Shown here: positions 1 to 18,999 of the stretch, piece by piece
How the letters are laid out: each line of letters opens with the position of its first letter
How positions within the stretch are numbered: position 1 is the stretch's first letter
DNA from: a virus
Lineage: Duplodnaviria; Caudoviricetes
Reading direction: 5' to 3' (one strand)
DNA length: 26,780 bases
Virus record (IMG/VR): IMGVR_UViG_3300020043_004036
Coordinates: 1 to 26,780 of that record
Made by a program: the position numbers and the translations under genes
Notes under the pieces: generated by a model
The model's input: only the letters and a program-made list of their open reading frames with translations
Database searches by the model: none
What the model was told of the DNA's origin: nothing

Positions 1-195
1 CCGTGGAAAACGATCGGCCCGGGCGCGTTTATCAATAACCGTTTTCAGACATTGTGCCAACCGTGCCATTCTCAAAAAACGGGCTTAGAACAACGGGGGG
101 TTTTTAGGCATTACACCGATCACGGGGCGATTGACTACCAATCGGGCGATTGGCCCCAGATGATCAGCGACAACAACCCCGCCCGGGGCCAATGA
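1..195 (+). CDS. HNH endonuclease, C-terminal part (5'-truncated by window edge; terminase-associated gp74-like type)
   Basis: Not in the ORF track. Frame 1 reads PWKTIGPGAFINNRFQTLCQPCHSQKTGLEQRG...ARGQ*, with the N-x2-Q-x-LC-x2-CH-x2-KT signature of phage HNH nucleases; TGA at 193-195. Confidence 0.8.
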   Translation, partial: PWKTIGPGAFINNRFQTLCQPCHSQKTGLEQRGVFRHYTDHGAIDYQSGDWPQMISDNNPARGQ

Positions 196-426
196 CCCCC
201 CAAAACGACCCCAAACAACCCCAAACGGGGCAAAACGGGGCCAAAACGGGGCCAATTCCTTATAAATTGTACAATCTAGCATCAATTCTGTAGTACTGGG
301 GTTTGCAGTTTGCCATTGCCACCATATAAACGTAGTACCCCAACATTACCAACCCAACGATTTGAAACTAAAAGTGTGCGGTTTGGCGATGGGTATTGGC
401 CCCGTGTTTCTGTCGTTGGCAATGGT

Positions 427-458
427 GACCATTGGCGGGTTTGCAATGGTCGTTTTTT
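427..458 (+). terminator. Intrinsic terminator-like hairpin upstream of the early operon
   Basis: GACCATTG (427-434) pairs with CAATGGTC (444-451) around a 9-nt loop, followed by GTTTTTT. Confidence 0.5.
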
Positions 459-480
459 CTGGTTTATTGGGGGATTGATC

Positions 481-690
481 ATGCATTTGGACAAAACAAG
501 GGTTACTTTTCATCACGGTTGCGGGTTTGCCCCCGAAGGGATCGACAAAAAACCGTTTGCAACATTGGTTGTAAATGACATTGTCCCCCGGGAATTGATC
601 GACAAAATTTGTGACGTGATGCGCGAATATCACAATGGGATCGGGGATTTTTGCAACGTCAAAATCCAATCCGAAGATTGGGATTGTTAA
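481..690 (+). CDS. Hypothetical protein (69 aa)
   Basis: ATG at 481 follows GGGGGA (RBS-like). It is the 3' part of ORF 310..690 and is co-oriented with the downstream operon. Confidence 0.7.
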   Translation: MHLDKTRVTFHHGCGFAPEGIDKKPFATLVVNDIVPRELIDKICDVMREYHNGIGDFCNVKIQSEDWDC

Positions 691-719
691 CAATTTTTCA
701 CATTACAGGATAAAACATC

Positions 720-1592
720 ATGCAAATCAAATCATTCAAAACCGCCCCCAAATTTGCAAAATTGCAGGATTTGGCAATTGCCGTGCAAATGGGGGATGAT
801 CACGTTATCGCCCGGGCAATCTATAAATTACAAATCGATAACGATTTTTCCGGCCCGGGTTGGCAATCCAACCTTAACAAATTGTCGGATGTTTTCAGTC
901 AAAAAACCCCCCAATTTTCAATTTTTGCGCTGGGGGGCAATTCAAAATTGCCGTTTGTCTCGTTTTCCACTATTCCCGGGGTTACATGCCCCGGGGCGGG
1001 GGATTGCATCAATTTTTGCTATTCCTATAGGGCATGGCGATTCCCTGCAGCGTTTGCGCGCATGATCCAAAATGCATACTTGATGCGGTTTGCCCCGGAT
1101 CAAATTGCACGGGCATTTGCAGCGATTGCAGCAAAACGACCCGGGGGGTTTGATTGTCGTTTGTATGTGGATGGTGATTTTGCAAACGGGGGTGACGTTG
1201 CGTTTTGGATGTCATTGTTGGCATCAACCCCAAACGCCCGGGCTTATGGTTACAGCAAATCATTTCATGCATTGTTGGGGTTTGACGTTGTCGGGGTTTG
1301 GCCTACCAACTACCAACTTAACATTTCAGGGGGTCACAATGCATCCCGGGCGATTGTTAACGCTGTAAAAAAATTGCCGATCACACGGGGGGAATTTATA
1401 GCGGTTTCGATTGGGCGAAAAGTCAAAAGCAACGATCACGGGTCACCCAGCGTTAACGCTGCAATCCGGGCCAAATTTCCGGGGGTTAAGGTTTTTCCGT
1501 GCCCGGGGGCATGTGGATCATGCACGGGGGCGGGGCATGCATGCGGTTTACCTAAGATGAAAAACCGCGTTATCGCGATTGCAATGCACTAA
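720..1592 (+). CDS. GP88-family Cys-rich protein (possible Fe-S / radical-SAM-like)
   Basis: 290 aa with GNSKL, TCPGAGDCINFCY (Cx5Cx3C), RLYVDGDF, YGYSKS and a C-terminal CPGACGSC..C cluster. These motifs are typical of phage 'gene product 88' proteins. AGGA RBS upstream. Confidence 0.8.
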   Translation: MQIKSFKTAPKFAKLQDLAIAVQMGDDHVIARAIYKLQIDNDFSGPGWQSNLNKLSDVFSQKTPQFSIFALGGNSKLPFVSFSTIPGVTCPGAGDCINFCYSYRAWRFPAAFARMIQNAYLMRFAPDQIARAFAAIAAKRPGGFDCRLYVDGDFANGGDVAFWMSLLASTPNARAYGYSKSFHALLGFDVVGVWPTNYQLNISGGHNASRAIVNAVKKLPITRGEFIAVSIGRKVKSNDHGSPSVNAAIRAKFPGVKVFPCPGACGSCTGAGHACGLPKMKNRVIAIAMH

Positions 1593-1605
1593 AAAGGGGT
1601 CAACA

Positions 1606-1818
1606 ATGACAACAATTTCAAAATTTCATACGGGTTTTATCAATGCAATGGTGGAAAGTGCATACAAATTTGATGCACAAACCGCAAAAACAGTTAACGA
1701 CCCCCAAATGACAAATTGTCAATTAAGGGATTTTTTGTGCGCGTTTTGCGGTTGCACGGAAAAACCAATGAATGAACCGTTTTGCTATCCAATTTGCCCA
1801 AAATGCGGGGGGGCTTAA
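1606..1818 (+). CDS. Small zinc-finger-like protein (70 aa)
   Basis: AAGGGG RBS before ATG 1606; C-terminal CAFC...CPKC pairs. Confidence 0.65.
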   Translation: MTTISKFHTGFINAMVESAYKFDAQTAKTVNDPQMTNCQLRDFLCAFCGCTEKPMNEPFCYPICPKCGGA

Positions 1819-1820
1819 CA

Positions 1821-1994
1821 ATGACTAACCAACAAATTTGTGATTTTTACGATAACAACCCAAACCTGACAATTGCCCAATTGGCGCAAATGCTTAGGAT
1901 GACCCCTGATCAGGTCAAAACAATCCTTCAAACCCCGCCCCCCGTGCAATCGTACGGGCGCAATCGGGGTCGTTCAAACAATTACAGGGGCTAA
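1821..1994 (+). CDS. Small HTH-like protein (57 aa)
   Basis: ATG 2 nt after the previous stop; NPNLTIAQLAQMLRMTPDQVKTIL resembles a helix-turn-helix. Confidence 0.65.
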   Translation: MTNQQICDFYDNNPNLTIAQLAQMLRMTPDQVKTILQTPPPVQSYGRNRGRSNNYRG

Positions 1995-1995
1995 C

Positions 1996-2217
1996 ATGGG
2001 CAAATTTTCTGATATCGATATCGAATTGACTTATGGCACAAAACCGACAAAAATGCCCCGTGAAGGGTCGTTTGGGGTATCAATCAACGACCCAAACAAC
2101 CCGCCAATGTTTTATGAATTGTTAACGATTATGGGCAATGTGGGGCTTTTTTGGCCTAATGATGGATCGGGCGATATTGTTCAATTTTCATTAGATGATT
2201 ATTGGGAATTGACGTAA
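1996..2217 (+). CDS. Hypothetical acidic protein (73 aa)
   Basis: AGGGG RBS; starts 1 nt after the previous stop; followed by a terminator. Confidence 0.7.
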   Translation: MGKFSDIDIELTYGTKPTKMPREGSFGVSINDPNNPPMFYELLTIMGNVGLFWPNDGSGDIVQFSLDDYWELT

Positions 2218-2227
2218 AACCAAAACG

Positions 2228-2253
2228 ACCCCGGGCAAAACCGGGGTTTTTTT
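2228..2253 (+). terminator. Rho-independent terminator closing the GP88 operon
   Basis: ACCCCGG-GCAAAA-CCGGGGT stem-loop followed by a T-run, just after the stop at 2217. Confidence 0.85.
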
Positions 2254-2268
2254 GGCTTTGCTAAGTTA

Positions 2269-2280
2269 GTTAGCGCTCAC
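2269..2280. promoter_or_regulatory. SlmA-binding-sequence-like imperfect palindrome GTTAGCGCTCAC
   Basis: Matches the E. coli SBS consensus GTGAGTACTCAC at 9/12 positions, keeping the GTnAGnnCTnAC frame. It is a local AG/CT cluster inside otherwise AG/CT-poor DNA. Confidence 0.45.
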
Positions 2281-2283
2281 TTC

Positions 2284-2640
2284 AAAATTGGCCCCGTTTG
2301 CGGGGTTGTTTGGGTTTTGCTGGGGGTTGGCCCGGGGTGATCGTTTGGCCCGTTTGCGGGGCGATTGGCCCCCAGCGATTGGGCGATTGTTTGGGCAATT
2401 GTTTGGGGTTGGTTTGGCGGGGTTTGTTATCCCCGGGCGATTGACCCCAATGATTGGCCCGGGTTGGATCGGGCGGGGTTTGGCGGGTTGACCCCGTTTT
2501 CTGGGGGCGATTGGCGGGGGTTTGCAGCGATTGGGGCGGGTTGGTTTGGCCCCCGGTTGATTGGGGCGGGGTTGGCCCCGGGGCGATTGGGCGGGGCGGG
2601 GCGATTGGCCCCCGATCATGCCAACCCGGGCGGGTTATGT
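2284..2640 (+). repeat. G/T-skewed degenerate repeat array (GCGATTG, G-runs, TTGGCCCC)
   Basis: GCGATTG at 2361, 2375, 2383, 2437, 2507, 2527, 2583 and 2601. The + strand is very A-poor. No credible ORF. Confidence 0.75.
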
Positions 2641-2718
2641 AATGATTTCCCCGTCATTTTGCCATTTTTGTAGGTCATTGGGTCACATTTCCAATGGCAC
2701 TAGGGGTAAACCCTGTAG

Positions 2719-2738
2719 TACTGTATGGGCATCCAGTA
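2719..2738. promoter_or_regulatory. LexA (SOS) box
   Basis: TACTGTATGGGCATCCAGTA fits TACTG-N10-CAGTA and has 2 mismatches to the E. coli recA operator TACTGTATGAGCATACAGTA. Confidence 0.7.
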
Positions 2739-2798
2739 ATACTAGGGCCAGAAAAGTCTAAAAGCCAACTACGCATTTCGGAAAAAAAATTTAGAAGC

Positions 2799-2826
2799 AA
2801 AAAAAATGCCCTAACTGACAAGGCAT
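2799..2826 (-). terminator. Rho-independent terminator of the leftward operon
   Basis: Minus strand reads AUGCCUU-GUCAGUU-AGGGCAU followed by a U-run, downstream of the stop at 2870. Confidence 0.75.
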
Positions 2827-2869
2827 AAAAAGGCTTTTTCCGAAAAGCCACTCACCAAGGAAAACTTTT

Positions 2870-3070
2870 CTAAACCTGTTCAAATTTTTTGGTCAGATTT
2901 GTTGGTGCTTTCCACGAACTTTCGTCAACTCTGTAGGAAATCACATCTTTGCTTTGTGCTTTGTAGCCAGAAGCGTAAGCAGCGCGAGAAACTGCCAGTG
3001 CTTTTGCTTTTGTATCAAATGGCCCTTGCGCCCCCCAATACCAGCCTGATTGTTTTTTAACGAGTGGCAT
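2870..3070 (-). CDS. Conserved small phage protein (66 aa)
   Basis: MPL..GWYWG.QGPF.TKAKAL.V.RAAYASGYK pattern; start overlaps the upstream stop. Confidence 0.75.
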   Translation of the reverse strand: MPLVKKQSGWYWGAQGPFDTKAKALAVSRAAYASGYKAQSKDVISYRVDESSWKAPTNLTKKFEQV

Positions 3071-3480
3071 TATTTTAGGAACTTCAGTTTGTATTTGGTG
3101 GAATCTGTCAGGTCAAGCAGTTCATCCACGATGTTTTGCAGTTCGCTTTCTTGTGGGAATCCGGGCATTTTGCGATAGCTTTCAATTTGGTCACAAATGT
3201 ATTCAACAAGCTCCAGACCATTTTCCCCCAGAAAAAGTGCCTTTTCCGCGAAAATTATTTTCGACTTTTTTCCTTGGTATGCCTCAATGAATTTGTCAGC
3301 ACGTTTATCAAGCTCAACATAGAAGTCACCCAAAGCCATGTGCTGTGAGTAGCTATCAGTGCCAAGGTGGTGGATATGCCCTGCTGTCACGCCGTTAAGC
3401 AGACACATTGCAAACTCTCCCATCACATTGGACGGTGCTTCGTTGATGCTAAATTTCATGGTGGATTCTCCTGCTGTCAT
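3070..3480 (-). CDS. DUF5856-family ferritin/Dps-like four-helix protein
   Basis: HIHHLGTDSYSQHMALGDFY...D.FIEAYQG and ELQNIVDE...TKYKLKFLK motifs. Confidence 0.75.
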   Translation of the reverse strand: MTAGESTMKFSINEAPSNVMGEFAMCLLNGVTAGHIHHLGTDSYSQHMALGDFYVELDKRADKFIEAYQGKKSKIIFAEKALFLGENGLELVEYICDQIESYRKMPGFPQESELQNIVDELLDLTDSTKYKLKFLK

Positions 3481-3935
3481 TGTATAACCGTAACGTCTTT
3501 TGAGCGAGAGCGCAGTTTGTTGCGTGTTTTGGCAATCATGCGCTCGTACTCTGATCGGCTAATTGATGTTCTTTGCAGGTGATGCCACTCTAAAACCTCA
3601 TTGATGGCCCTCAGACCTGTGCCTGTCAGTAACATTTTACCTGTGGCCTCATATCGCTTGGCAGCGTGTGTAAGCTCAATCTCAGCCATCATAGAGTCTG
3701 GTAGTGCTTCTGGCCCGATGCCGTTTCTTGCCATAACCTGACAGATGTTGTTCATGTCTACCAGTTCTTGCCATGTGTAGACAGTTGCGTTACCTGTACG
3801 CATAGCTTCAATGGCGGCAAGCTCTTTGTCTTTGAGTTGTTTAAGGCAATCGTCTGTTGTGATACCTGCGCCAGCGATAGCGTGAGCTATTGGGTTGACC
3901 AGTTGATATACCCGTCTACGACAAACTTTTCTCAT
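3477..3935 (-). CDS. Hypothetical phage protein (152 aa)
   Basis: Long ORF with 4-nt overlaps on both sides. Confidence 0.8.
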   Translation of the reverse strand: MRKVCRRRVYQLVNPIAHAIAGAGITTDDCLKQLKDKELAAIEAMRTGNATVYTWQELVDMNNICQVMARNGIGPEALPDSMMAEIELTHAAKRYEATGKMLLTGTGLRAINEVLEWHHLQRTSISRSEYERMIAKTRNKLRSRSKDVTVIQ

Positions 3936-4153
3936 TTGAAGTCTCTGATGTAAACAGCAAAACTAGCGGCTGTATCGCCAAACGGCATAGCGTCAATAGC
4001 GGTTGCAAGGCGATGCTTGAAGTCTTTAATGGCAATTTCACGCTCATCCGCACGGACAATGGCAACAAGCTGCTCCAGCCGGTCAAGCGGTGCGCCAGAC
4101 CATTCTGTGTGTGCGCCGTAGACTTCATGTGCAAGTTCTATCGTGGTTTTCAT
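3932..4153 (-). CDS. Hypothetical protein (73 aa)
   Basis: ATG at 4153 (MKTTIELA...) is ATGA-coupled to the upstream stop at 4150. Confidence 0.7.
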   Translation of the reverse strand: MKTTIELAHEVYGAHTEWSGAPLDRLEQLVAIVRADEREIAIKDFKHRLATAIDAMPFGDTAASFAVYIRDFK

Positions 4154-4494
4154 TTCATCATCTCCATCATCGCTTGCCTGCAATCGTTCCACCCTGCCAC
4201 ATATTCGATGTGCTCCTGAATGTCGGCGCTTGTCATAGCATCAGGCACGGCTGGCTTTGCTGCTTTCAACCGCTTAATCTCGGACATATGCTCACGCAAC
4301 GACTCCTGCGTGGCTTCAAGCAAAGACCAGTCTCGGCCCTCTAGTACAGGTGCTGGCTGTGCTGCGGTATGTTCTTTCAAGATGGCGTCAATCATCTCAA
4401 TCGCTGTGTTTGCATGGACGCAAGGGTCACGACTGAGCAGCGTCTTGATGGCGACCAAGCCACCACCAACACCAAAGGGCAATGCTTCTCTCAT
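4150..4494 (-). CDS. Hypothetical protein, Eaa/nin-region type
   Basis: ATG at 4494 overlaps the stop at 4491. The C-terminal YVAGWNDCRQAM motif is typical of lambdoid accessory proteins. Confidence 0.65.
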   Translation of the reverse strand: MREALPFGVGGGLVAIKTLLSRDPCVHANTAIEMIDAILKEHTAAQPAPVLEGRDWSLLEATQESLREHMSEIKRLKAAKPAVPDAMTSADIQEHIEYVAGWNDCRQAMMEMMK

Positions 4495-4589
4495 AACACC
4501 TCCACCAGCCACCACAGGCCATAAATGATTGACACAGACACTGTTGCTGATGCCAGCAGCGATGCAATTAGGATTGTTCGGGTTTTCAT
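4491..4589 (-). CDS. Small membrane peptide (32 aa)
   Basis: MKTRTILIASLLASATVSVSIIYGLWWLVEVL; ATGA-coupled on both sides. Confidence 0.55.
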   Translation of the reverse strand: MKTRTILIASLLASATVSVSIIYGLWWLVEVL

Positions 4590-4678
4590 TTGATGATCCT
4601 CATAAAAGCGCCACAACGAGCGCATTTGTACAAGGGCAAATCGCTTAAAGGTTCCCACAAATGTTTGCAATCCATCAT
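4586..4678 (-). CDS. Small zinc-ribbon peptide (30 aa)
   Basis: Not in the ORF track. MMDCKHLWEPLSDLPLYKCARCGAFMRIIK (CxH...CxxC) fills the gap with ATGA overlaps at both ends. Confidence 0.6.
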   Translation of the reverse strand: MMDCKHLWEPLSDLPLYKCARCGAFMRIIK

Positions 4679-4929
4679 GTTCCCTTTGTGCCCCAATCGG
4701 GCATCTTTTCGTTAGCTGCAAGTTCTTCAAGCTGTACGTACAGATTGTCCAAGCCGGGATCGCCAAAACTACGGCTGCAATAATGCGACCAAAACCAAGT
4801 CGCTTCTTCCCACAGACATTCTTTAAACAATCTGTCTCTAACAAATGCGCCGGGGCTGTTGGGCATGTACAGTTTTTTGCTGTCATCTATTTCGGCTCTC
4901 ATAGCCGCTGCAATGGCTGCGTAATTCAT
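4675..4929 (-). CDS. Hypothetical protein (84 aa)
   Basis: ATGA-coupled in the operon; GGAGG RBS. Confidence 0.75.
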   Translation of the reverse strand: MNYAAIAAAMRAEIDDSKKLYMPNSPGAFVRDRLFKECLWEEATWFWSHYCSRSFGDPGLDNLYVQLEELAANEKMPDWGTKGT

Positions 4930-5135
4930 GCCTCCCTCGCTTTCAGCATGGCATCGGCCATTTGGTAGGAGTCCAGTGCAACACCCATGCGCCAGTCCTC
5001 ATCAGGAAAGCAGTCGCATTGGTAAAGAACAACTTGCATTGCCTTGGCCGCAAAGTAGTCGCGCAGGGTCATGCCTAATTTGTATTGACCACTAGGAAAA
5101 GCTGGAAATTGTTTAACAAATTCATCTTCAGTCAT
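4926..5135 (-). CDS. Conserved small phage protein (MTLRDYFAAKAMQ family)
   Basis: PAFP...GMTLRDYFAAKAMQ...YQMADAMLKAR motif, widespread in proteobacterial phages. Confidence 0.85.
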   Translation of the reverse strand: MTEDEFVKQFPAFPSGQYKLGMTLRDYFAAKAMQVVLYQCDCFPDEDWRMGVALDSYQMADAMLKAREA

Positions 5136-5418
5136 GTGTTTTTCCTATCTTGTTTAGTGTCCACTCAAGCAGTTCTTGCTGAGTGACTCCATAATATTCC
5201 ACAAAGCCCCTAGTCCCCAATCCGTGAATACCCTTATTGCCACGATGATGTTCGTAACATAAGCCCATCAGCGTCTTGTAATCACCCTTGCCCCACCCCC
5301 CTGCTCTTAGGTGATGCAGTTCCACAGGAGCGGGGTCATGCTCACCGTAAAGGTGATAACACAGCGCACAGCCAAGGCTTGCCACGGCCTCTTTATGCTT
5401 CTTCTCTGCGTTCTTCAA
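5128..5418 (-). CDS. Ref-like (recombination enhancement) HNH-type nuclease
   Basis: VASLGCALC...VELHH...GLCYEHHRG..GIH..G...F...YG pattern. Confidence 0.7.
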   Translation of the reverse strand: MKNAEKKHKEAVASLGCALCYHLYGEHDPAPVELHHLRAGGWGKGDYKTLMGLCYEHHRGNKGIHGLGTRGFVEYYGVTQQELLEWTLNKIGKTHD

Positions 5419-5716
5419 GCGTCACCCCATTTGTGTTGGCCCAATACAACAACCACTCAGTAAAGCTGACAGCTTGCTCTTTGGTAAACCTGCGGCTTTG
5501 CAACCCTAGCTGGACTACTCGCAAACCGTCAATGCTTGGCATCACCTTGCTAACTGATGCTGATTCGCCGTTCTCATGTGCCCACTGATCTATCAGGTAT
5601 CGCTTCCATGATTCTGTTGACCAGCGGCTACCGTGCAGCTTTGATTGTTTGGCAATCTGGTTAATGATGGCGTGATATAGCTTTTCTTGCTCACGGCTTT
5701 TCATGTCGGGTGTCAT
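5393..5716 (-). CDS. ninB: NinB/Orf-family recombination protein
   Basis: Q.KLYHA....IAKQ...W..ESWK...V.PSIDG..VV.LG.QS..F..EQ...F.EWL pattern. Confidence 0.7.
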   Translation of the reverse strand: MTPDMKSREQEKLYHAIINQIAKQSKLHGSRWSTESWKRYLIDQWAHENGESASVSKVMPSIDGLRVVQLGLQSRRFTKEQAVSFTEWLLYWANTNGVTLEERREEA

Positions 5717-6126
5717 GGCAATTCTTCCCTGACCAACACATCAACTTTTGAATCTGTGTCGTAGCGTTTTGACACTCGCAACTTAACGACCTGCACATCA
5801 TCTTTGTAGACAATGCCGTTCATTGCATCAAGAAAAACTTTAGCAACGTTATCAAGGTCAGGCTTTTTAGGCCAATCCAAACCGTTTAAACAGGCTTCCT
5901 TGCGCTTTTTGGAGTAGCTGGCGGGGATAGCATGGCTTATCCAAATAAAGATTGCTACAGGCGTTTGTAGCGGCTCTGATGAACCCATTGCTTGACTTGC
6001 TTTGCTAGCAATGATGGTTTCATAGTCCACTGTCTTTTTTGGCGTGTATGTCCGACCACGGGAAAACCTTGGTCTTTGTTTGCCAACAGGATCGCCTTCA
6101 ACGCTGTAAGTTACTTGAAACGTCAT
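5713..6126 (-). CDS. rusA: RusA-family Holliday junction resolvase
   Basis: GKQRPR, YTP.KT..YE, KKPDLDNVAK..LDAMNGIVYKDD.QV catalytic motifs. Confidence 0.9.
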   Translation of the reverse strand: MTFQVTYSVEGDPVGKQRPRFSRGRTYTPKKTVDYETIIASKASQAMGSSEPLQTPVAIFIWISHAIPASYSKKRKEACLNGLDWPKKPDLDNVAKVFLDAMNGIVYKDDVQVVKLRVSKRYDTDSKVDVLVREELP

Positions 6127-6233
6127 AGCGGCGACTCCCCTGCGTCTTCACGCTTTTTCTTTTCGTACTCTTGGATTTGTTTGCGTGTCCAAGGAGTTGG
6201 TCCTGATGGTGGTGGAAAGGGCCAAGTGTTCAT
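6123..6233 (-). CDS. Small hypothetical peptide (36 aa)
   Basis: Not in the ORF track. MNTWPFPPPSGPTPWTRKQIQEYEKKKREDAGESPL; ATGA overlaps at both ends. Confidence 0.6.
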   Translation of the reverse strand: MNTWPFPPPSGPTPWTRKQIQEYEKKKREDAGESPL

Positions 6234-6436
6234 TCCAATTCTCCATTTTGTAGTCTTGTCATGTAATCACGAATCCTTGCTACAGAACCCGTGCCGTACT
6301 TTTTTTCCAACCATTCCATTCTTGCTTGCGTAAGAACTTTCTGCTTGGTCACTTGGTAGGTGCAAAGCAATACCCTTGCTTCACCCAACTCAATCATGTA
6401 TCTGTCTCCAGCGTCTTGTATCTGTCTGCGTGTCAT
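6230..6436 (-). CDS. Hypothetical protein (68 aa)
   Basis: ATG at 6436 (MTRRQIQDAG...) is coupled to the stop at 6433. Confidence 0.7.
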   Translation of the reverse strand: MTRRQIQDAGDRYMIELGEARVLLCTYQVTKQKVLTQARMEWLEKKYGTGSVARIRDYMTRLQNGELE

Positions 6437-6621
6437 GGGTAAGGCCAAAGTTGAATCAAGCCCCACTTCATCTTTGGGTACTTGCGAACAGTGTTTGTCT
6501 TTTGCAGACGCTGGATGCTGGCCCACACTTGCTTTGTTGTCCAGCAGGTGATTTCTTCAATCTCTTTGCTGGACAGTTCGCCGTGTTCAAGCAGTTTCTT
6601 CAATGCGTAAACTCTTGTCAT
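6433..6621 (-). CDS. Small winged-HTH-like protein (62 aa)
   Basis: LLEHGELSSKEIEEITCWTTKQVWASIQRL pattern; coupled in the operon. Confidence 0.7.
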   Translation of the reverse strand: MTRVYALKKLLEHGELSSKEIEEITCWTTKQVWASIQRLQKTNTVRKYPKMKWGLIQLWPYP

Positions 6622-6956
6622 TTTTTTACCCTTGCAATTATTTCAGCAATCCGTTTTTTGTTCGCAGCCATTTGCTCTGCTGTTAGTTTGTTTTCCAACA
6701 TTGGCAAGGTAGGTTCAGGTGCTTTCCTGCACATAGCACGAAATTCAAGAACTGTTGGCGGCTTGCCGCTGTCAGGCATGTTTTTCAAAGCATAAGCAAT
6801 TGAGTCAGGATAGTCTTTAAATCCAGCTAACTCATGTGACCAATCAGCTTTGACTTCAGCAATGTCCAAACCTTCCCAACGACCAAGAAAGTCTCGTCCA
6901 TAGATCATGGTCAACTTAGTAAAGATTCTTTCAACCCAAGGCATAGGCAAGCTCAT
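6618..6956 (-). CDS. Replication protein P-like helicase loader/inhibitor
   Basis: Directly follows the initiator; VERIF..L...YG..F..RW and PPT..EFR.MC motifs. Confidence 0.6.
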   Translation of the reverse strand: MSLPMPWVERIFTKLTMIYGRDFLGRWEGLDIAEVKADWSHELAGFKDYPDSIAYALKNMPDSGKPPTVLEFRAMCRKAPEPTLPMLENKLTAEQMAANKKRIAEIIARVKK

Positions 6957-7717
6957 TTGTTCACCTCAATAGCTTTCTGTGAGTCCATGTCAATGGTGCG
7001 AAAGAAATCGCTTGCGTCTTGGTAAGGTGCTTGCTTGGCAATGCTTGGCACTGCTTCTTGCATCTTCAAACGCATTGATCGTTGGTAAACAGTCTCTGTC
7101 TGGTTTTGCTTTTCATCAGACTTTAGCCAAGAAGCCTCAAGCCCTTGTGAACCTCTTGCACACCAGATGGTCAGAAATGCGTTTAGGGTAATGCCGGCCT
7201 TTTCTGCTTCTTTCCTTGCAGACTTCAGTACGGTTTCGGTCACAGGTGCTTTCTTGGCTTTCCTGAGAGACAACCAATCTTCCCACTCTTGTAAACCAAC
7301 ATCAGGTGGGCAAGCAACGCTAGTTGCGTTCTCTCTCTTTGGTTTATGGTTATTGGTTATTGGTTTATGGTTATTGGTTGGTTGAACGTCCGTTGAACGT
7401 ACGCTTGACCTGCGTTCAGCAGATGCTTTACCAGCCTTTGACGCTTGTTCAACTTTTGAGTGGTAATGTTGTATTTCCTTGTCTGCTCTTGGCGAAACAA
7501 AGCCATCATCAGTCGAAACAAAGAACTCATTGAGGACTGTAAGAACGTCCTGCTCCCAATCTCTCATGCCTATTTGTCGAGCAATGTCTCGTTGCTTAAT
7601 AGGTTGTTCGTGGAGATAGTAAAAGTCCAAAAGCCTACGGTAGGCAATATCTTCAATTAAAGAAAGATGACGAGTGTGACTTGCATAGTCACCTATGTGA
7701 AACTGGTAGTAGTGCAT
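6953..7717 (-). CDS. DUF1376 (YdaU-like) replication initiator
   Basis: MHYYQFHIGDYASHTRHLS..E..AYRRLLD.YY..E.P N-terminus, KAGKASA, internal repeats and a W.DWL..RKAKKAP C-terminal domain. Start placed at 7717. Confidence 0.85.
   Translation of the reverse strand: MHYYQFHIGDYASHTRHLSLIEDIAYRRLLDFYYLHEQPIKQRDIARQIGMRDWEQDVLTVLNEFFVSTDDGFVSPRADKEIQHYHSKVEQASKAGKASAERRSSVRSTDVQPTNNHKPITNNHKPKRENATSVACPPDVGLQEWEDWLSLRKAKKAPVTETVLKSARKEAEKAGITLNAFLTIWCARGSQGLEASWLKSDEKQNQTETVYQRSMRLKMQEAVPSIAKQAPYQDASDFFRTIDMDSQKAIEVNK
7340..7400. repeat. Iteron-like direct repeats inside the initiator gene (candidate origin)
   Basis: TGGTTTATGGTTATTGGTT at 7340 and 7361 (period 21); GTTGAACGT at 7381 and 7392. 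Confidence 0.55.
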
Positions 7718-7832
7718 GATTTCCCGCTTTTTCAACACCCTTTGAAGAAACTGCGGCAGGGGAAGGGGTAACCCTTTTCGGTCGGGGGATCAATCCCAAC
7801 CTAGCCGTTGTTTCAAATTACTATACCATTAC

Positions 7833-8252
7833 TCAAGCCCTGCTGTAAACAGTGATCGGGTTGTTGTTGTTGTACTTCTGTTGCGCCAAAACAATCTCAC
7901 GCTTAGTCATGAGTTGTTGCTCTTGGTTGCGCCAGTTAAAAGCATTGCCTGTTGACTTGACTGTTCCATCTTCCCAAGAATTAAGATCAGTCGGTTGATC
8001 TTGTTTAACAACATCCATTGCTTGTTGCTTTTGTGCAACAAATGGTTTGCCTGTTAATTGGTGATGGTAGGCGTACTTGCCGTTACCTTGCAAAACTTTC
8101 TTGACGCAGACAATGTAGCCTTCTTTGACCAATGCGTCTTTGATGGCTGCTGGTGAATCATGGAATCGTGTTGACATGCGGTTCATGATAATTCTATGGC
8201 TTACAGGGCCATTTTTTAGTTGCTCAAGGTAATACGCTTTTGCATGTGACAC
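7833..8252 (-). CDS. Hypothetical protein (139 aa), possible N-terminal winged helix
   Basis: ORF with AAGGA RBS, co-oriented with the replication operon. Confidence 0.75.
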   Translation of the reverse strand: MSHAKAYYLEQLKNGPVSHRIIMNRMSTRFHDSPAAIKDALVKEGYIVCVKKVLQGNGKYAYHHQLTGKPFVAQKQQAMDVVKQDQPTDLNSWEDGTVKSTGNAFNWRNQEQQLMTKREIVLAQQKYNNNNPITVYSRA

Positions 8253-8416
8253 AGGGTTAGTTCCTTCTTTGTGGTTAGTTCAATAGCGCGAGCTAAGACA
8301 GCAACGGTAGCTGCCTCAAAGTCGCCGGGGTCAAAAGTGTATTGCTTTACAGATTGAATTGCAGTGACGCAAAGCTCCTGTGCGGCAACGGTTTCGTGAT
8401 GGTCTGGTGTAGTCAT
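8216..8416 (-). CDS. Hypothetical protein (66 aa), first gene of the leftward operon
   Basis: ATG at 8416 (MTTPDHHE...); overlaps the next gene by 37 nt. Confidence 0.55.
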   Translation of the reverse strand: MTTPDHHETVAAQELCVTAIQSVKQYTFDPGDFEAATVAVLARAIELTTKKELTLCHMQKRITLSN

Positions 8417-8642
8417 GCTGGCAAGGTTATCATTGTTGACCTGCTTGTCTACTAGGGTTTGTCCTAATATAAAAAACAAGTTTTTCAATTACATTTAAGT
8501 TGTTGGCAACCTAGAACTGTGAAGTCCATCATGGTAAAAAGTTGCAATGCCATCGAAACTTAACGCCAACAAACGAGGTGACTCGTCATTGTTTAGGGAC
8601 GAATTGCAAAAACGGACATTTTTTAACAAGACAGGAGTTCAC
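8417..8642. promoter_or_regulatory. Divergent intergenic control region
   Basis: AT-rich gap between divergent operons; contains the imperfect palindrome TAGGGTTTGTCCTA (8453-8466). Confidence 0.6.
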
Positions 8643-8807
8643 ATGGTAATTACATTGTCCCGCAAAGAAATTGAGAAAATTCTTCTTGATTACGCAAACA
8701 AAGTCGTTGAAGGTTACGGCTTTAATGAAGTTGTTTCTTCTACTTACCGTGATCTGCCAGCCACTATTGAAGTGGTCAAATCAGAGCCAAAAGAGGTGCA
8801 AGAATGA
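8643..8807 (+). CDS. Hypothetical protein (54 aa)
   Basis: AGGAG RBS before ATG 8643. Confidence 0.7.
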   Translation: MVITLSRKEIEKILLDYANKVVEGYGFNEVVSSTYRDLPATIEVVKSEPKEVQE

Positions 8808-8962
8808 ATACATTTCAAATTCGTTGCAAAGCCCGTGAGTTGTTTAAGACTTACGATGCGCCACCACAAGTCATTCAGCAGTACCAGCGCAAGTGGGTGC
8901 GTTCTGTTATCCAGCTTGGCCCTAACTGGCTGCTGGCTCAACCTGTAAGGAAAGTAGCATGA
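8804..8962 (+). CDS. Small conserved phage protein (52 aa)
   Basis: Not in the ORF track. MNTFQIRCKARELF...YQRKWVRSVIQLGPNWLLAQPVRKVA; GAGG RBS; ATGA overlaps at both ends. Confidence 0.7.
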   Translation: MNTFQIRCKARELFKTYDAPPQVIQQYQRKWVRSVIQLGPNWLLAQPVRKVA

Positions 8963-9573
8963 ACGTCTATCAAAAACTTAATGTTGCTCGTAATAAGTTT
9001 CACAACACTGAAATCAAGAAATCAGGTCACAACAAGTTTGCTGGCTACAAATACTTTGAACTTGGCGATTTTATAGTTCCAGCCTTGAGCATTTTTGATG
9101 AAGTTGGTTTGACAAGCATTATTAGCTTTGGCAAAGAGTCTGCTGACATGCGAATCATTAACACTGACAAGCCAGAAGAAATGATTGTCATTGAGTCGCC
9201 AATGTCGGAGGCCAATCTTAAAGGCTGTCATCCCGTGCAGAATCTTGGTGCTGTGCAGACTTACATCCGCAGATACTTGTGGGTTGCTGCGCTTGAGATC
9301 GTAGAACACGATGCGCTTGATTCTTCTAAGCCTGTAGAAGACAAGAAAGTCATTATCACCCCATCACAAGGTATTGCAGACACTATTCCTCCAGAGGAAA
9401 TGCAGTACCTTCAAGAATTAGCAGTCGAGTTGATTGCTAACGTGGCTGAAGGAAACCCAAAGCAAGCCTTAGAAAGACTTGACTCTGAGAATCTTGAGGC
9501 TGATCAAAAGGTTGGACTGTGGTCATTGCTAGACAGCAAGACTCGTTCGGCTATTAAAAAAGCAAAGGAATAA
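8959..9573 (+). CDS. erf: ERF-family single-strand annealing protein
   Basis: KKSG.NKF.GYKYFEL.DF and Q.LGA.QTY.RRY...AL.I.E.D.LD motifs. Confidence 0.85.
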   Translation: MNVYQKLNVARNKFHNTEIKKSGHNKFAGYKYFELGDFIVPALSIFDEVGLTSIISFGKESADMRIINTDKPEEMIVIESPMSEANLKGCHPVQNLGAVQTYIRRYLWVAALEIVEHDALDSSKPVEDKKVIITPSQGIADTIPPEEMQYLQELAVELIANVAEGNPKQALERLDSENLEADQKVGLWSLLDSKTRSAIKKAKE

Positions 9574-9575
9574 AT

Positions 9576-9830
9576 ATGCAATACGACAACACCAATCGCG
9601 GAGCCATCTTTAAAAACGATGACAAGCAACAAGACAATCATCCAGACTACAAAGGCAGTCTGAACGTCAATGGCGTTGACATGTGGGTGTCAGGATGGCT
9701 TAAAACGTCCGACAAGACGGGCAAAAAGTTTATGAGCCTGTCGGTTAAGCCAAAAGAAGATAAGCCCGTTAAACAGGCTTCTAGCCCAAAGCGGCAACCT
9801 GTTGAAATGGATGACGATATCCCATTTTGA
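9576..9830 (+). CDS. Phage single-stranded DNA-binding protein-like
   Basis: NRGAIFKN...HPDY.G...W.SGW.K...G.KFMSL with an acidic DDDIPF tail; follows erf. Confidence 0.75.
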   Translation: MQYDNTNRGAIFKNDDKQQDNHPDYKGSLNVNGVDMWVSGWLKTSDKTGKKFMSLSVKPKEDKPVKQASSPKRQPVEMDDDIPF

Positions 9831-9835
9831 TTAAC

Positions 9836-9915
9836 GGGGGAAAGCGGATGCTGACGAGTCATTGTTCTAGGCAGTGCAGGATGATCTCTAGGAAGTTAGA
9901 CGCAGCGAGTACCCC
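9836..9915 (+). ncRNA. Candidate structured RNA element (long hairpin with loop-E-like motif)
   Basis: GGGG-GAA / AGTA-CCCC outer motif, then GCG/CGC, CTGAC/GTTAG and GAGTCAT/ATGATCTC stems. Confidence 0.45.
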
Positions 9916-9984
9916 ACCTTAATTAAATTAGCAATGTTATTGGCATTTAATAAGGTTGCTAACATTTATAACTTAGGACAAAAC

Positions 9985-10296
9985 ATGACATACGCAAAAA
10001 CATTCAAAGACTTCTTTGACATCAAGTTTCCTCGTGTCCGTGCGACTGATCCAATTGAGTCGTTTGAGGCTGCTGATTTAATCGTAGAGTCTGCATCAAA
10101 GCATTGGAATCTTATTGCTGATTGTTTAAGAGAGCATGGGCCACTTGGCAAAGATGGCATTGCAAGGTTAACTGGTCTTGATGGCAATCAAGTTGCTCGG
10201 CGCATGAACGAAATGAAAGTTATGGGCATGGTGTTTTTAACAGGCAAGACAGTTAAATCAAACTCAGGACGTAACGAAAGAGAGTGGACAGTATGA
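9985..10296 (+). CDS. Winged-HTH DNA-binding protein
   Basis: R.TDP..S..AA motif followed by L...GPL....IA..TGL....V.RR..E; AGGA RBS before 9985. Confidence 0.75.
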   Translation: MTYAKTFKDFFDIKFPRVRATDPIESFEAADLIVESASKHWNLIADCLREHGPLGKDGIARLTGLDGNQVARRMNEMKVMGMVFLTGKTVKSNSGRNEREWTV

Positions 10297-10607
10297 AAGA
10301 AACACAATCGTATAGCAGCACAGAGTTTGCTGTAATGCAGTGGGCAAAAGACCGAGGCATTTACGAAAATGGTACAGCACTAGGCCAAGCAAAGAAGACG
10401 CTTGAAGAAGCTGGTGAGTTGCTTGCTGCTGTTGCCAGTAATGACCGTGAGGAAATTGCAGATGCCATTGGTGACGTTATGGTCACGCTGGTCAACGTAA
10501 GCGTATTGTGAGACATGGACTTACGCCAGTGCTTTTACAAGGCTTTTAAAGTCATAGAACCAAGGCAAGGTTACATGAACAAAAACGGTCAATTTGTTAA
10601 AGCATGA
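10293..10607 (+). pseudogene. MazG-like nucleotide pyrophosphohydrolase interrupted by an in-frame TGA (10509-10511)
   Basis: WA.DRGI...Q..K..EE.GEL...DAIGD..VTL. The frame continues past TGA as DMDLRQCFYKAFKVIEPRQGYMNKNGQFVKA, matching the family C-terminus, and ends ATGA-coupled to the next gene. Confidence 0.8.
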
Positions 10608-10792
10608 ACACTTTACCGTTTGATTACTCAAGATGTCAGCCAGAGTTACCAGACTCACACTGCAAGAACTGCCGCAGATGGTTTCATCACCCTGAACAAG
10701 TGAACAATCCTTACGGTCAGTCTTTTGTCAGTGTTGAGTCCAGTAGCTCAGAGGCTTGCTGCTATATGCCAATTTCACTCTTGAAGAAATAG
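10604..10792 (+). CDS. Small Cys-rich protein (62 aa)
   Basis: LPFDYSRC......HCKNCRR...CC; last gene of the + operon, overlapping the lysozyme end. Confidence 0.7.
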   Translation: MNTLPFDYSRCQPELPDSHCKNCRRWFHHPEQVNNPYGQSFVSVESSSSEACCYMPISLLKK

Positions 10793-11281
10793 GGCAATCT
10801 CGGCTTCCCTGCGCCGCACCAGACCGGGCAGGACTTTCCCGCCTCCCTTTGTCCACATTCTGAAGGCTTGGGCTGCGCCTTCCCAATCGCCCCGGTTTGC
10901 CTTCATGCGGATGGTGCTGCGTTGGAGGTTGCCTAGTCCGAAGTTAAAGGAAATAGAGACAAGAGCGTCAAAAGCGCCTTGCTTGCCAACAACGCCGGGA
11001 ACAAGTCGAAGAACACCACGTTCAAAATGAGCAATGCTGCGGTCGAATAACTGATTGATTTCTTCCTTTGACCAGACACGGCTGTCCTCCTGACGCAGTG
11101 GATACTCTTTTCGAATCATGCCCGTGTAACCTTCTTTGCGTACAACAGGTAGGCGGATTTGGTCTTGATATAAAACCTCTCCAAAACCGACCGTCCAAAT
11201 TTGCGCCGGGCAAAGGTAAGGCTTGTTTCTGCACCCCTCAAAGCGGTGCATTAGGTCTGCGCCAGCTTTGGACAGTTTCAC
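10775..11281 (-). CDS. Endolysin, GH24 phage lysozyme
   Basis: FEGCRNKPYLCPAQIWTVGFG (E-x8-C-x5-T triad), FDALVS..FN.G.G, W.K.GG.VL.GL.RRR..E..LF. Confidence 0.92.
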   Translation of the reverse strand: MKLSKAGADLMHRFEGCRNKPYLCPAQIWTVGFGEVLYQDQIRLPVVRKEGYTGMIRKEYPLRQEDSRVWSKEEINQLFDRSIAHFERGVLRLVPGVVGKQGAFDALVSISFNFGLGNLQRSTIRMKANRGDWEGAAQAFRMWTKGGGKVLPGLVRRREAEIALFLQE

Positions 11282-11802
11282 TTCTTGCTCCAGCCTCTTG
11301 ACCCAAACCAGTAGCCCAAAATTCCACCAAGCATAGCCATTTCATCTGCACTAAACACTACATCTGCATAGCGCAGCACATCGTCTATGCTGGTGATCAA
11401 ACCGGGGTGCTGCCACAGGTAGTAACACAGGAAGGCGTTGATCGCCACCAGTTCAGCAACGAAGATGTAGGTCACTGTCGGGCGCACTGTGCCCACGTAG
11501 CTGGCAACCCATGTAGATGCCTTGGCGAGCACTGCTTTGTCGTGGTCCTGAGCGCCACGCACCATGTCTGCTTCAGCCTCGGCCATCTGCGCTTGGGTTT
11601 GCATGGCGACTTGCTCAGTGCGGATTTCTTCAACACGAGCTTGTGCAGCAAAGCCAGCAGCAGCAAGTGCCAATTCGCGTTCCGTTTGAACAGAAGCCAA
11701 AGCCAGTTCATGTTTTTGGTCAGCCTTGTTCTGAAAGTATTCCAGCAGTTTGGGCAAGCCAGAAATCAGCAGACCCCCAAGAGTTGAAATTAGTGAAAGC
11801 AT
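11278..11802 (-). CDS. Holin-like protein, GTA 3TM holin type
   Basis: N-terminal hydrophobic helix, coiled coil, W...Y.G.VRP..TY, two TM segments and G.WFGSR; adjacent to the lysozyme. Confidence 0.7.
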   Translation of the reverse strand: MLSLISTLGGLLISGLPKLLEYFQNKADQKHELALASVQTERELALAAAGFAAQARVEEIRTEQVAMQTQAQMAEAEADMVRGAQDHDKAVLAKASTWVASYVGTVRPTVTYIFVAELVAINAFLCYYLWQHPGLITSIDDVLRYADVVFSADEMAMLGGILGYWFGSRGWSKK

Positions 11803-12410
11803 TAGTTACCCCTTTTGGTTAGCATGGCGCTGGCAATTTCCAGCATAAATTTTACTTGCTCTAGGTTTTCTGGTTGTTCATTCCAACCAACCGTAATTTG
11901 TCCGACAAACCGATGTGAGTCTGGTGGTACGCTTACCCGACAGGTAAACCCAACACCTTTTTCTAAGTACCAAAGCCCAACCTCAGACTGAGCAAAACGG
12001 TATTCCCCGCATGGAATCTCGTTAGTCATCAACTTGACCACATCAGCATTGTTTGCTGAGTTCTGGCTAAACAATCCAACATCAATGTCTTCAATCGTTT
12101 TGTCTCTACCATCCTTTGTGTAGGCCCGGTACAGCACCCGGCTGTTGAACAAAGGGTTGACCTTGAATACCGCCACCACCGTAGCTCCCGTCTTCTTGAG
12201 CAGCATGGAGCTTGCGTCATCAGCCCTTGAGGTGTTGATCTCCGGCAGCTTCTTGGACTCCTTGTAGGCATCGCGCATGAACTCTTGGTTCTGCCAGAGG
12301 AAGTAACCGGCAAAAGCCACCACGCCCATGACAAGGATGGCAAACAGCTTAAATGGGCTGTCTACGTAGGTCAACACCCTATCAACAACGGACGCTGGTT
12401 TGTTGCTCAT
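11802..12410 (-). CDS. Single-TM protein with a large C-terminal domain, T4 gpT-holin-like architecture
   Basis: One N-proximal TM followed by a ~160-aa soluble domain with two Cys; short motifs resemble T4 T as recalled; lies in the lysis cassette. Confidence 0.55.
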   Translation of the reverse strand: MSNKPASVVDRVLTYVDSPFKLFAILVMGVVAFAGYFLWQNQEFMRDAYKESKKLPEINTSRADDASSMLLKKTGATVVAVFKVNPLFNSRVLYRAYTKDGRDKTIEDIDVGLFSQNSANNADVVKLMTNEIPCGEYRFAQSEVGLWYLEKGVGFTCRVSVPPDSHRFVGQITVGWNEQPENLEQVKFMLEIASAMLTKRGN

Positions 12411-12853
12411 CTTAGGTGATTCATGTATATGATGAAGCCTCCAACCAGAAGGCCAGCAAGCACAATTACAGCCAAGCCGATAGCGATGTACTCCGCTAAG
12501 TCTTCAAGCTCTTGCTTGCGCCTTTGAGCCTCTTTAGCGGCTGCTTCCTTGGCCTCCCTGCGCTTACGTGCTGCTGCTGCTTGAAATTTTATCCAATCAT
12601 TCCACATTCCCGGTCTGCCAGCGTAGACCATGCGCTCACGCAATTCTTCTTCTTGCTGCTTAAGTTGCTCAAGAGCCATGAATTCTTCAAGGTCTGAGCC
12701 GCCACCTTTCTTGGTAGCGTTTTCTTGAATCTTGGCTTTGCTGTCGAAGTAGTCAAAGACTCTTGAGCCAAGTTGATGAAGCTCTTTGCCGTTAGCCAGT
12801 GCTTGCTTAATGACAGAAAATGCCGCATTTGCAGCCATCAACTCAGCAATCAC
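12407..12853 (-). CDS. Coiled-coil protein with a C-terminal TM helix
   Basis: GTG start; charged helical core; YIAIGLAVIVLAGLLVGGFIIY TM. Confidence 0.75.
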   Translation of the reverse strand: MIAELMAANAAFSVIKQALANGKELHQLGSRVFDYFDSKAKIQENATKKGGGSDLEEFMALEQLKQQEEELRERMVYAGRPGMWNDWIKFQAAAARKRREAKEAAAKEAQRRKQELEDLAEYIAIGLAVIVLAGLLVGGFIIYMNHLR

Positions 12854-13145: not shown

Positions 13146-13161
13146 GTACTACTCCGAAAAA

Positions 13162-15311: not shown

Positions 15312-15320
15312 GTTGTTTCC

Positions 15321-18419: not shown

Positions 18420-18428
18420 GATGATTCC

Positions 18429-18923: not shown

Positions 18924-18931
18924 AACAGTTC

Positions 18932-18970: not shown

Positions 18971-18999
18971 CTACGGGTCTTGTCATGTAGTGGCTTATT

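Follow-up and report, generated by a model that had tools for sequence, protein, structure and literature searches.

In this work, we provide evidence that one end of the genome record of an uncultured, freshwater-type phage has been purged of a single complementary pair of dinucleotides, AG and CT, and that the purge is kept in place by ongoing selection. The DNA in question is a stretch of 26,780 nucleotides (IMG/VR record IMGVR_UViG_3300020043_004036, Duplodnaviria, Caudoviricetes; hereafter the window), which represents the whole record, is estimated to be 71% complete, and starts inside the purged block. The block comprises about the first 2.7 kb and carries a small operon built around a gene of the GP88 family (the GP88 cassette). 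As judged from cassette-less relatives of one lineage, the purge goes with this cassette and not with the position in the genome. We tentatively suggest that the cassette may enter the cell first, like the first-step-transfer segment of phage T5, and may be exposed there alone to a nuclease that reads short words.

AG and CT Are Depleted in a Sharply Bounded Block

In positions 1-2700, AG occurs 43 times against 177 expected from the base composition (ratio 0.24) and CT 46 times against 159 (ratio 0.29), while in the remainder of the window the ratios are 1.07 and 0.90, respectively. Counted together in 1-2672, AG and CT number 88, compared to a mean of 322.6 (standard deviation, sd, 22.8; minimum 283) in 429 overlapping segments of equal length taken from 2701-26780, i.e., the block lies about 10 sd under the mean. 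Bins of 300 bases contain 3-14 AG+CT each up to 2700 and 26-47 each beyond; the inner border is abrupt, falling between 2672 and 2700, and the final AG-free stretch ends at 2671. The left edge is not in the record: the block runs off its left end, and the record begins inside an HNH gene. Both strands are affected, and non-coding DNA as well as genes. GAG is absent from 1-2700, CTC occurs there three times (at 71, 959 and 2276), the block holds 18 copies of GATC, and seven AG are found in 2941-3000. An initial annotation of the window had reported these counts and described a sharply bounded segment depleted on both strands, coding or not, with Lys mostly AAA, Gln mostly CAA and Leu mostly TTG/TTA; the recount, the bin profile and the codon counts below fully bear out this description.

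The missing AG/CT is matched by an excess of AA, GG, CC and TT (enriched 1.45-1.66-fold in the block), which are the four products of a single transition in AG or CT. Neither this excess nor the scarcity of palindromes in the backbone (see below) had been noted in the initial annotation. Codon use has moved to AAA, CAA, TTR, GGG, CCC/CCG and TTT; in the GP88 gene, Lys is encoded by 16 AAA and 2 AAG, Gln by 9 CAA and 1 CAG, and Leu by 13 TTR and 3 CTN codons. When eight blocks of this kind (see below) were pooled, all the AG-containing trinucleotides were low, from 0.12 of expectation for GAG to 0.41 for AGC, with AAG at 0.31, TAG at 0.35 and CAG at 0.36. The number of distinct hexamers is 1734 in the block vs. 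2555 ± 70 in equal segments of the remainder.

The Depletion Is Apparently Maintained by Selection

Synonymous third-position changes were scored as a share of opportunity sites, separately for those creating AG/CT, those neutral in this respect and those destroying AG/CT; the pairs compared are not independent, so that the values are descriptive rates and not tests. In ten purged GP88 genes, the creating, neutral and destroying rates were 0.069, 0.216 and 0.370 for transitions, and 0.064, 0.121 and 0.234 for transversions. Two other genes of the block gave 0.061, 0.236 and 0.350, compared to 0.260, 0.227 and 0.264 in six flank genes of the same phages and to 0.242, 0.267 and 0.289 in unpurged GP88 relatives. 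Inside the block, AG/CT-creating changes are about 3-fold rarer than neutral ones, which is not the case in the flanks; therefore, the purge is maintained in place. The comparison thus points to a constraint that is ongoing and acts on the DNA itself. The suppression of creation in transitions and transversions alike speaks for selection acting on the state, as opposed to one mutational process. In a two-state calculation, the rates of creation and destruction are 0.32 and 1.72 times the neutral one, respectively, which is close to what one scaled selection coefficient of about 1.7 would give. The neutral synonymous divergence is similar in the block (0.22-0.24) and in the flank (0.23), which argues for their long co-residence.

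The purge extends into the protein sequence, since purged GP88 genes contain only 2-3 of the amino-acid pairs in which an AG is unavoidable, vs. 5-18 in the unpurged ones. A computation over the genetic code showed that CG and AG/CT are the sole classes whose removal from both strands of coding DNA leaves every amino acid available, AG/CT being the only one of them that is a pair of distinct complementary dinucleotides; just 15 of the 400 amino-acid pairs, [KQE][GAVDE], force an AG/CT site. This property of the code may be the reason why AG/CT can be the purged pair. Two explanations at the level of particular signals were dropped: avoidance of primase sites (CTG/CTA), because both are among the least purged AG/CT trinucleotides, and avoidance of Shine-Dalgarno sequences in RNA, because the sense strand has lost AG and CT to an equal extent.

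The Purged Block Recurs in Related Phages

Among 20 IMG/VR loci encoding a GP88 relative, eight (L004-L008, L012, L021 and L022) bear a purged block with AG/CT ratios of 0.2-0.4 and sharp borders; L004 and L021, which share an identical stretch of 2295 bases, were counted once. The homologous blocks are 2.2-3.4 kb long. The remaining 12 loci show milder dips, 0.5-0.9 vs. 1.0-1.4 in the flanks. A GP88 relative was also found in 34 metagenome loci, of which 26 were profiled and eight dropped as IMG/VR duplicates or partial matches; three of the 26 (L097-L099) are extreme, and the others range down to no deficit. In a complete record of 37.5 kb (G002), the block is internal and is the sole region of this kind, and the same holds for the records G001 and G003.

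In four relatives (L005, L006, L021 and L022), the alignment to the window (67-84% identity) continues straight through the inner border, and short Logan contigs from three public runs belonging to three studies bridge the junction, with a difference of 54 bases; the largest share of the words found in any one sequencing run, again in short Logan contigs, was 0.28. The initial annotation had asked whether the junction at ~2700 is spanned and whether homologous genomes show the same depletion at the same place: the junction is spanned as described, and the depletion is seen in the cassette-bearing relatives even though their accessory genes differ. The junction reproduced in diverged contigs, together with the internal block in G002, rules out a chimera or another assembly artefact.

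No donor with a genome-wide AG/CT deficit was found among the whole records G001-G005; 19 further loci around relatives of the HNH and accessory genes showed local dips of 0.4-0.7 only and no whole-length deficit, and 11 contigs of metagenome-assembled genomes (MAGs) showed no genome-wide deficit. In a Polynucleobacter MAG (G006; 400 kb sampled), the AG ratio is 0.88. Thus, the AG-poor donor that would have spoken against the initial annotation did not appear among the records examined. The block had no blastn match in 50,697 phage records, nor did GP88 in a tblastn search of the same records, so that no cultured phage among them carries a close homologue.

The Polynucleobacter MAG carries a GP88 gene of 77% identity on a 6-kb contig, which may serve only as a lead to freshwater Burkholderiales such as Polynucleobacter as possible hosts. 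The octamer GCGATTGG is present in this MAG in 244 copies per its 1.7 Mb vs. 35 for a reversed control, ranking 94 of 65,072 octamers, and the commonest octamers of the MAG (TTGATCAA, TGCGATTG, GCAATTGC and GCGATTGC) resemble words of the block. A Chi-like role of the GCGATTGG repeats was considered and dropped, because many block-like words are also frequent in the MAG and because the array, given the polarity of RecBCD, is oriented opposite to what an enzyme coming in from the putative end described below would need.

Two records have unusual structures. In L012 (a 6.8-kb contig), the purged block at 4226-6805 borders on head-tail genes that are high in GC and belong to a phage of quite another kind, which may reflect either a real transfer to another backbone or a chimeric contig. 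The 72,563-base record G001, which holds L007, is an inverted pseudo-dimer of two related phage genomes (~78% identity) joined head to head, with a purged block at one end only; this structure is probably an assembly join.

The Block Adjoins the Terminase Genes and a Putative cos End

The initial annotation had suggested that the block may be the leading end of the genome, and the relatives place it directly beside the small terminase gene. In L004, the leftward portal, terL and terS genes are followed by a gap of 349 bases, a leftward HNH gene and then the rightward operon. The HNH gene lies directly upstream of terS and terL and in the same direction, an HK97-type arrangement, in L004, L005, L021 and G008. 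In L008, a lambda-type terL/terS pair adjoins the block, and no HNH gene is found beside the block. In the distant relatives L010, L014 and L023, which have SU10-type portals, GP88 comes first after the terminase genes, leading toward a primase-helicase.

Three diverged contigs from three datasets (G003/L021, L005 and the 39-kb contig of L098) begin at one homologous base (CTCCTGCGCC / CTCCTACGCC), which corresponds to position 2913 of L004, within the HNH-terS gap and at the composition border. The putative cos core there, CCTGCTCCTGC, is CT-rich. Five related contigs (L004, G007, G008, G009 and G010) cross this point, as circular or concatemeric forms would. The simplest reading is that the shared start is likely a physical cos end, in line with the terminal position suggested in the initial annotation. 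A rival reading is an assembly branch at a point of rearrangement, because the HNH-terminal segment is found in both orientations. This segment, i.e., the HNH gene with the last ~230 bp (1-394 of the window vs. L004 2913-3648, L005 1-1025 and L007 1-720), is oriented one way in the window and L007 and the other way in L004, L005, L021, L098 and G009; where it is inverted, in the window and L007, terS is off the record. In these two, the inverted terminal sequence provides the start of the gene for the small hydrophobic protein. A scan of IMG/VR with the terminus motif returned 91 loci, mostly chance matches, eight of them related.

In lambda, packaging leaves the end opposite terS until last, and ejection starts with it. 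On the model of lambda and HK97, we infer that the cassette end would enter the cell first in these phages.

Two motifs deserve mention. In L008, and in this relative only, three perfect DnaA boxes (TTATCCACA) lie at 9162, 9194 and 9263, between the terS start and the block. DnaA boxes are also described in the stop-signal region of T5, according to the section on that signal in a T5 study (10.1101/866236). Their role as a stop signal was dropped, since the three perfect boxes are confined to L008 and to the outer border. The word (AT)TAGGGTTTGTCC, followed by a -10-like TATAG/TAATAT, is present at 8447-8475 of the window, within the divergent early region at its centre, and in relatives ahead of the cassette operon (L008 9516, L099 69, L107 61, L012 531, L007 14 (minus strand)). 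This suggests that the cassette and the central region may be under a common early control.

Organization of the Block and the GP88 Protein

The features of the window are listed in Table 1.

Table 1. Features of the purged block and of the adjoining backbone (window coordinates).
Feature	Position	Strand	Basis and remarks
AG/CT-purged block	1..2672		88 AG+CT vs. 322.6 ± 22.8; homologous blocks in relatives; continues past the left record end
HNH endonuclease gene, 3' part, cut by the record start	1..195	+	PHROG HNH families, E 5e-4
Non-coding stretch	196..361		CCCCAAAC-type runs with ~10-bp phasing at 196-256; GTAGTAC motifs at 290 and 332
Small hydrophobic protein, ~34-38 amino acids (aa)	362..479	+	Short form of the 60-aa protein of L004, L008, L012 and L021; window 380-476 aligns to relatives
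69-aa open reading frame (ORF), accessory, variable among relatives	481..690	+	No family matched
GP88-family protein, 290 aa, core gene of the cassette	720..1592	+	Pfam PF17338, 55.1 bits vs. cut-off 24.4
70-aa Cys-rich ORF, accessory	1606..1818	+	No family matched
57-aa conserved small protein	1821..1994	+	Weak helix-turn-helix-like match (Sigma70_r3, E 0.005, under the cut-off); kept in L007, L008 and L021
73-aa conserved small protein, last gene of the operon	1996..2217	+	ORF and conservation among relatives
Terminator-like hairpin followed by a T run	2227..2258	+	
G+T-rich low-complexity array, inner border	2266..2672		GCGATTG-type repeats
Lambda-like siphophage backbone	2701..26780		Normal AG/CT; genes include DUF5856, RusA, NinB, ERF, lysozyme, tail tip and tape measure

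The genes of the operon are all on the plus strand, the block is transcribed toward the rest of the window, and its first 195 bases match HNH families, the latter two as initially annotated. Full-length homologues of the truncated HNH gene are found in L004 (3151-3648; PHROG phrog_144, 2e-21) and L007 (59-511). The counterpart of the non-coding stretch is inverted in relatives, forming the final ~230 bp ahead of the shared contig start. The GTAGTAC motif recurs at 2715, thus marking both edges of the block, twice within a longer word (CTGTAGTACTG at 288 and 2713), and its copies are among the few AG/CT kept by the block and its border. From its hydrophobic sequence alone, the small protein encoded next is read here as membrane-type. 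The accessory genes vary among relatives, yet all of them are purged.

The match of GP88 to PF17338 exceeds the gathering cut-off, and all nine relatives scanned match this family as well. The alignment reveals seven invariant cysteines arranged in two clusters, C90-x5-C96-x3-C100 and C261-x3-C265-x2-C268 ... H273-x-C275; the CxxxCxxC cluster motif of radical-SAM enzymes is absent from it. In the predicted model (pLDDT, the predicted local distance difference test, 78), the best fold matches found with VIA-align are radical-SAM enzymes, all of them weak (Z 5.0-6.5, each below Z 8): spore photoproduct lyase (Z 6.5), viperin (6.2), SuiB (5.4), lysine aminomutase (5.3) and QueE (5.2). A Foldseek search with the same model gave no match at E <= 0.001, and our literature search found no papers naming PF17338.

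The array at the inner border contains G-quadruplex-type motifs at 2302-2337, 2461-2487 and 2580-2601, all on the plus strand and the only ones in the window (none in 3001-26780). A minus-strand ORF of 117 aa within it is probably an artefact, because the array is devoid of stop codons. The homology of L008 and L012 to the window stops inside this array.

Two Palindrome Regimes in One Genome

The backbone strongly avoids palindromes: in 2701-26780 of the window, 6-bp palindromes number 121 vs. 362 ± 18 in dinucleotide-preserving shuffles (z -13.5), while the block has 64 vs. 55 ± 7, i.e., no overall avoidance. The pooled data agree, with 444 palindromes vs. 1325 expected in the backbone of three genomes (the window, G002 and G003 outside their blocks) and 518 vs. 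465 expected in the eight blocks. GCATGC, CTGCAG, CAGCTG and GTCGAC are among those wholly absent from the backbone, where TTGCAA and CAATTG are not avoided. The pooled blocks are rich in CCCGGG, TGATCA, GCATGC, ATGCAT and ATCGAT, all avoided by the backbone. The idea that the block is simply exempt from palindrome avoidance proved too simple, since GGGCCC (0 vs. 29 expected in the blocks), GGCGCC, CCATGG, TGGCCA and others are avoided in the block and in the backbone alike. In the pooled blocks, C-runs may be followed by G-runs, but G-runs of at least three are never followed by C-runs of at least three, so that CCCGGG is frequent and GGGCCC nil.

The backbone also avoids palindromes that contain AG/CT, namely AAGCTT, CTGCAG and CAGCTG. 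An AG-directed modification of the phage DNA, which the initial annotation had offered as one explanation, does not fit this avoidance.

Discussion

The explanation that we favour, while regarding it as possible rather than probable, is that an early-type GP88 operon beside the packaging end, purged by ongoing selection, serves as a T5-like stealth segment that enters the cell first and is exposed there alone to a word-reading nuclease. The cassette end at cos would be ejected first, by analogy with lambda and HK97, and the entry of DNA would pause at the G-rich array of the inner border. The cassette, alone in the cell, would then meet a nuclease reading short words, which would come from the host or be made early by the phage. 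AG/CT would be the purged pair since the genetic code permits its removal. With a length of 2.4-3.4 kb, the block amounts to 6-9% of the genome of ~37 kb.

Several observations weigh against this explanation. Two relatives of the same backbone (G007 and G008) share with the purged phages the cos-like motif, the HNH gene, terS/terL (78-79% identity) and DUF5856, and a different set of four small genes occupies the site where the GP88 cassette would be. In this replacement region of 3.1 kb, AG/CT is 0.91/0.93 (ratio range 0.7-1.3) and palindromes are at 0.32 of expectation, as is typical of the backbone. Hence, neither the position nor the restriction pressure of the host alone gives the purge, and the depletion does not stand at this position regardless of gene content, a point that the initial annotation had proposed to check; the purge appears to go with the GP88 cassette, G007 and G008 representing one lineage. 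Moreover, the block's tolerance of palindromes that the backbone avoids is odd for what should be the stealthiest part of the genome: the observed and expected numbers are 127 and 29 in the blocks vs. 0 and 6 in the backbone for CCCGGG, 32 and 3.8 vs. 3 and 28.5 for TGATCA, 25 and 9.8 vs. 0 and 48 for GCATGC, and 22 and 11.5 vs. 4 and 39 for ATGCAT. The palindrome avoidance in the backbone argues, in turn, that the cassette products do not disarm Type II enzymes. When the cassette proteins were compared with Pfam and PHROG, only HNH and GP88 could be named, and no known anti-defence or T5 pre-early family was found. Mycobacteriophage L5 has no purge around its gene 88 (ratio 1.16/0.89 in the gene), and to our knowledge, two-step entry is confined to T5-like phages. 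The cassette-less relatives and the tolerated palindromes weaken the first-entry explanation and give weight to a cause bound to the cassette.

Such a cause could be self-avoidance: a product of the cassette, most plausibly GP88 as an iron-sulfur (Fe-S), radical-SAM-like protein, would act on DNA at AG/CT, so that its own cassette must stay free of targets to be expressed. We consider this improbable but worth keeping in mind. It would account for the purge following the GP88 cassette and not the position, with G007 and G008 lacking both, and for the purge of all the cassette content, including the variable accessory genes and the oppositely oriented HNH gene. GP88 modules of unrelated phage types also dip mildly relative to their flanks, and the best fold matches of the predicted GP88 model are headed by a DNA-repair enzyme, spore photoproduct lyase. 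However, the remaining phage genome with its normal AG/CT would be a substrate too, and a protective AG modification of it is a misfit, as the backbone still avoids AG/CT-containing palindromes. Besides, L5 has gene 88 without the purge, and the GP88 fold matches are weak, the canonical CxxxCxxC is absent, and the protein has no known activity.

Elements of both explanations may be combined in a portable "landing module", an unlikely reading in our opinion: a first-entering cassette, with entry halted at the G-quadruplex-type array, would be written in a reduced alphabet without the AG/CT step and would alone survive a dinucleotide-reading DNA damage, possibly inflicted by GP88, the Fe-S enzyme that it encodes, acting against the chromosome of the host. 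If true, this would be a new kind of sequence-level self-immunity.

AAG, GAG and AGG are known protospacer adjacent motifs (PAMs). The segment at the cos end could be a hot spot of spacer uptake and the best target for CRISPR (clustered regularly interspaced short palindromic repeats) systems, and the loss of AG/CT would remove PAMs of this type from both strands. The effect on both strands and on non-coding DNA agrees with this explanation, as do the weak, additive effect per site (destroy/create ratio ~5), GAG as the rarest AG-containing trinucleotide, and the low AAG. For T5, sensitivity to CRISPR is limited to the segment that enters first, as the T5 study states in its passages on that segment (10.1101/866236). 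Nevertheless, CAG and TAG are nearly as depleted as AAG, ATG cannot be removed, and the cassette-less relatives of the same geometry are unpurged; we hold this candidate explanation to be unlikely.

We also doubt, to much the same degree, that a regional mutation bias is responsible, i.e., that a local repair or replication process converts AG/CT to AA, GG, CC and TT without selection on the state. The deficit is indeed mirrored by an excess of these four dinucleotides, and the codon choice moves to GGG, CCC, AAA and TTT, but a process that only destroys AG/CT would not bring its creation below the neutral rate in transitions and transversions alike. The creating and destroying rates fit one selection coefficient, the AG-forcing amino-acid pairs are depleted too, and the borders are sharp.

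Packaging mechanics offer a still poorer explanation: the last-packaged DNA would pass the armed terminase, with or without HNH, or would need special physical properties, so that AG/CT pseudo-sites would be selected out upstream of cos. The purge is confined to the last-packaged side of the putative cos, whose core is itself rich in CT; however, phages with either of two unrelated terminase types, some bearing HNH and some not, show the same purge, cassette-less relatives that have the same terminase and the same cos motif are unpurged, and a gradient would be expected instead of a sharp inner border. Finally, a foreign or chimeric segment passively keeping the composition of its donor is very improbable: although the block contrasts sharply with its flanks, occurs in several backbones (in L012 even beside high-GC DNA) and has a tetranucleotide profile that is somewhat closer to that of the Polynucleobacter MAG (r 0.46) than to that of the phage carrying it (r 0.30), diverged contigs show the same junction, the neutral divergence of block and flank is equal, the constraint is ongoing and not relaxing (creating changes at 0.06-0.07 vs. 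neutral changes at 0.22-0.24 of sites in the block), and neither the whole records G001-G005 nor the 19 further loci nor the MAG show a whole-length deficit.

Among known systems, the first-step-transfer segment of T5 is arguably the closest model for the cassette. As described in the parts of the T5 study devoted to this segment, it constitutes 7.9% of the genome, ends at a repeat-rich stop signal, and is the place where EcoRI sites are cut, those elsewhere being spared (10.1101/866236). Like it, the cassette is a terminal segment of similar relative size, has its own early-type operon of small variable genes and a repeat-rich inner border, and follows a regime of word avoidance unlike that of the rest of the genome (AG/CT 0.24/0.29 vs. 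1.07/0.90), with the contrast reversed for some palindromes. The differences are also evident. The cassette phages have a lambda/HK97-like backbone and cos-type terminases; they show no long terminal repeat, as the complete G002 has a single purged block and IMG/VR lists all the records without end repeats, although assembly could collapse a repeat. No family from the Pfam and PHROG scans, which worked by family only, names a T5 pre-early gene (A1/A2/dmp). What is avoided is a dinucleotide instead of a restriction site, palindromes continue to be avoided in the rest of the genome, and two-step entry is here a proposal.

Regional rather than genome-wide avoidance is also known from some Autographiviridae (Murciavirus), whose sensitivity depends on Type I motifs only where these lie in the highly variable region that is injected first, as far as the summary of that work goes (PMC12455610). 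There, the effect of one defined motif of one known system was proven experimentally, according to the same summary (PMC12455610), while in our case a whole dinucleotide is concerned and the order of entry is inferred. The genomic setting of the cassette, in turn, recalls L5, whose gene 88 (GP88 family) is located at a distance of 1.9 kb from the right end and is directed inward; one relative's locus (L020) also holds a gene of the L5 gp82 family. The right arm of L5 (genes 89-88 ...) is an early operon. The difference is that L5 has no AG/CT deficit. With the genome-wide avoidance of CpG or restriction sites, the purge shares the use of the slack in the genetic code by synonymous recoding, but it affects only 2.7 kb, within sharp borders.

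We know of no described reader of the AG/CT step, and the literature that we found on dinucleotides, leading regions and first-step transfer describes no dinucleotide-level purge in a phage segment. What was known already is the regional avoidance of single restriction motifs in first-entering DNA of T5 and some T7-like phages. What is new here is that selection acts against an entire dinucleotide step on both strands of one cassette, down to the protein sequence, while the rest of the same genome obeys a different avoidance rule. In other words, two parts of one virion chromosome likely face different sequence-reading agents, and the finding suggests that a two-letter DNA step has a reader still to be described. 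The property of the code that makes AG/CT the sole sheddable complementary pair may explain which pair evolution can purge, and a local AG/CT ratio below 0.4 provides a simple signature for finding such cassettes in metagenomes.

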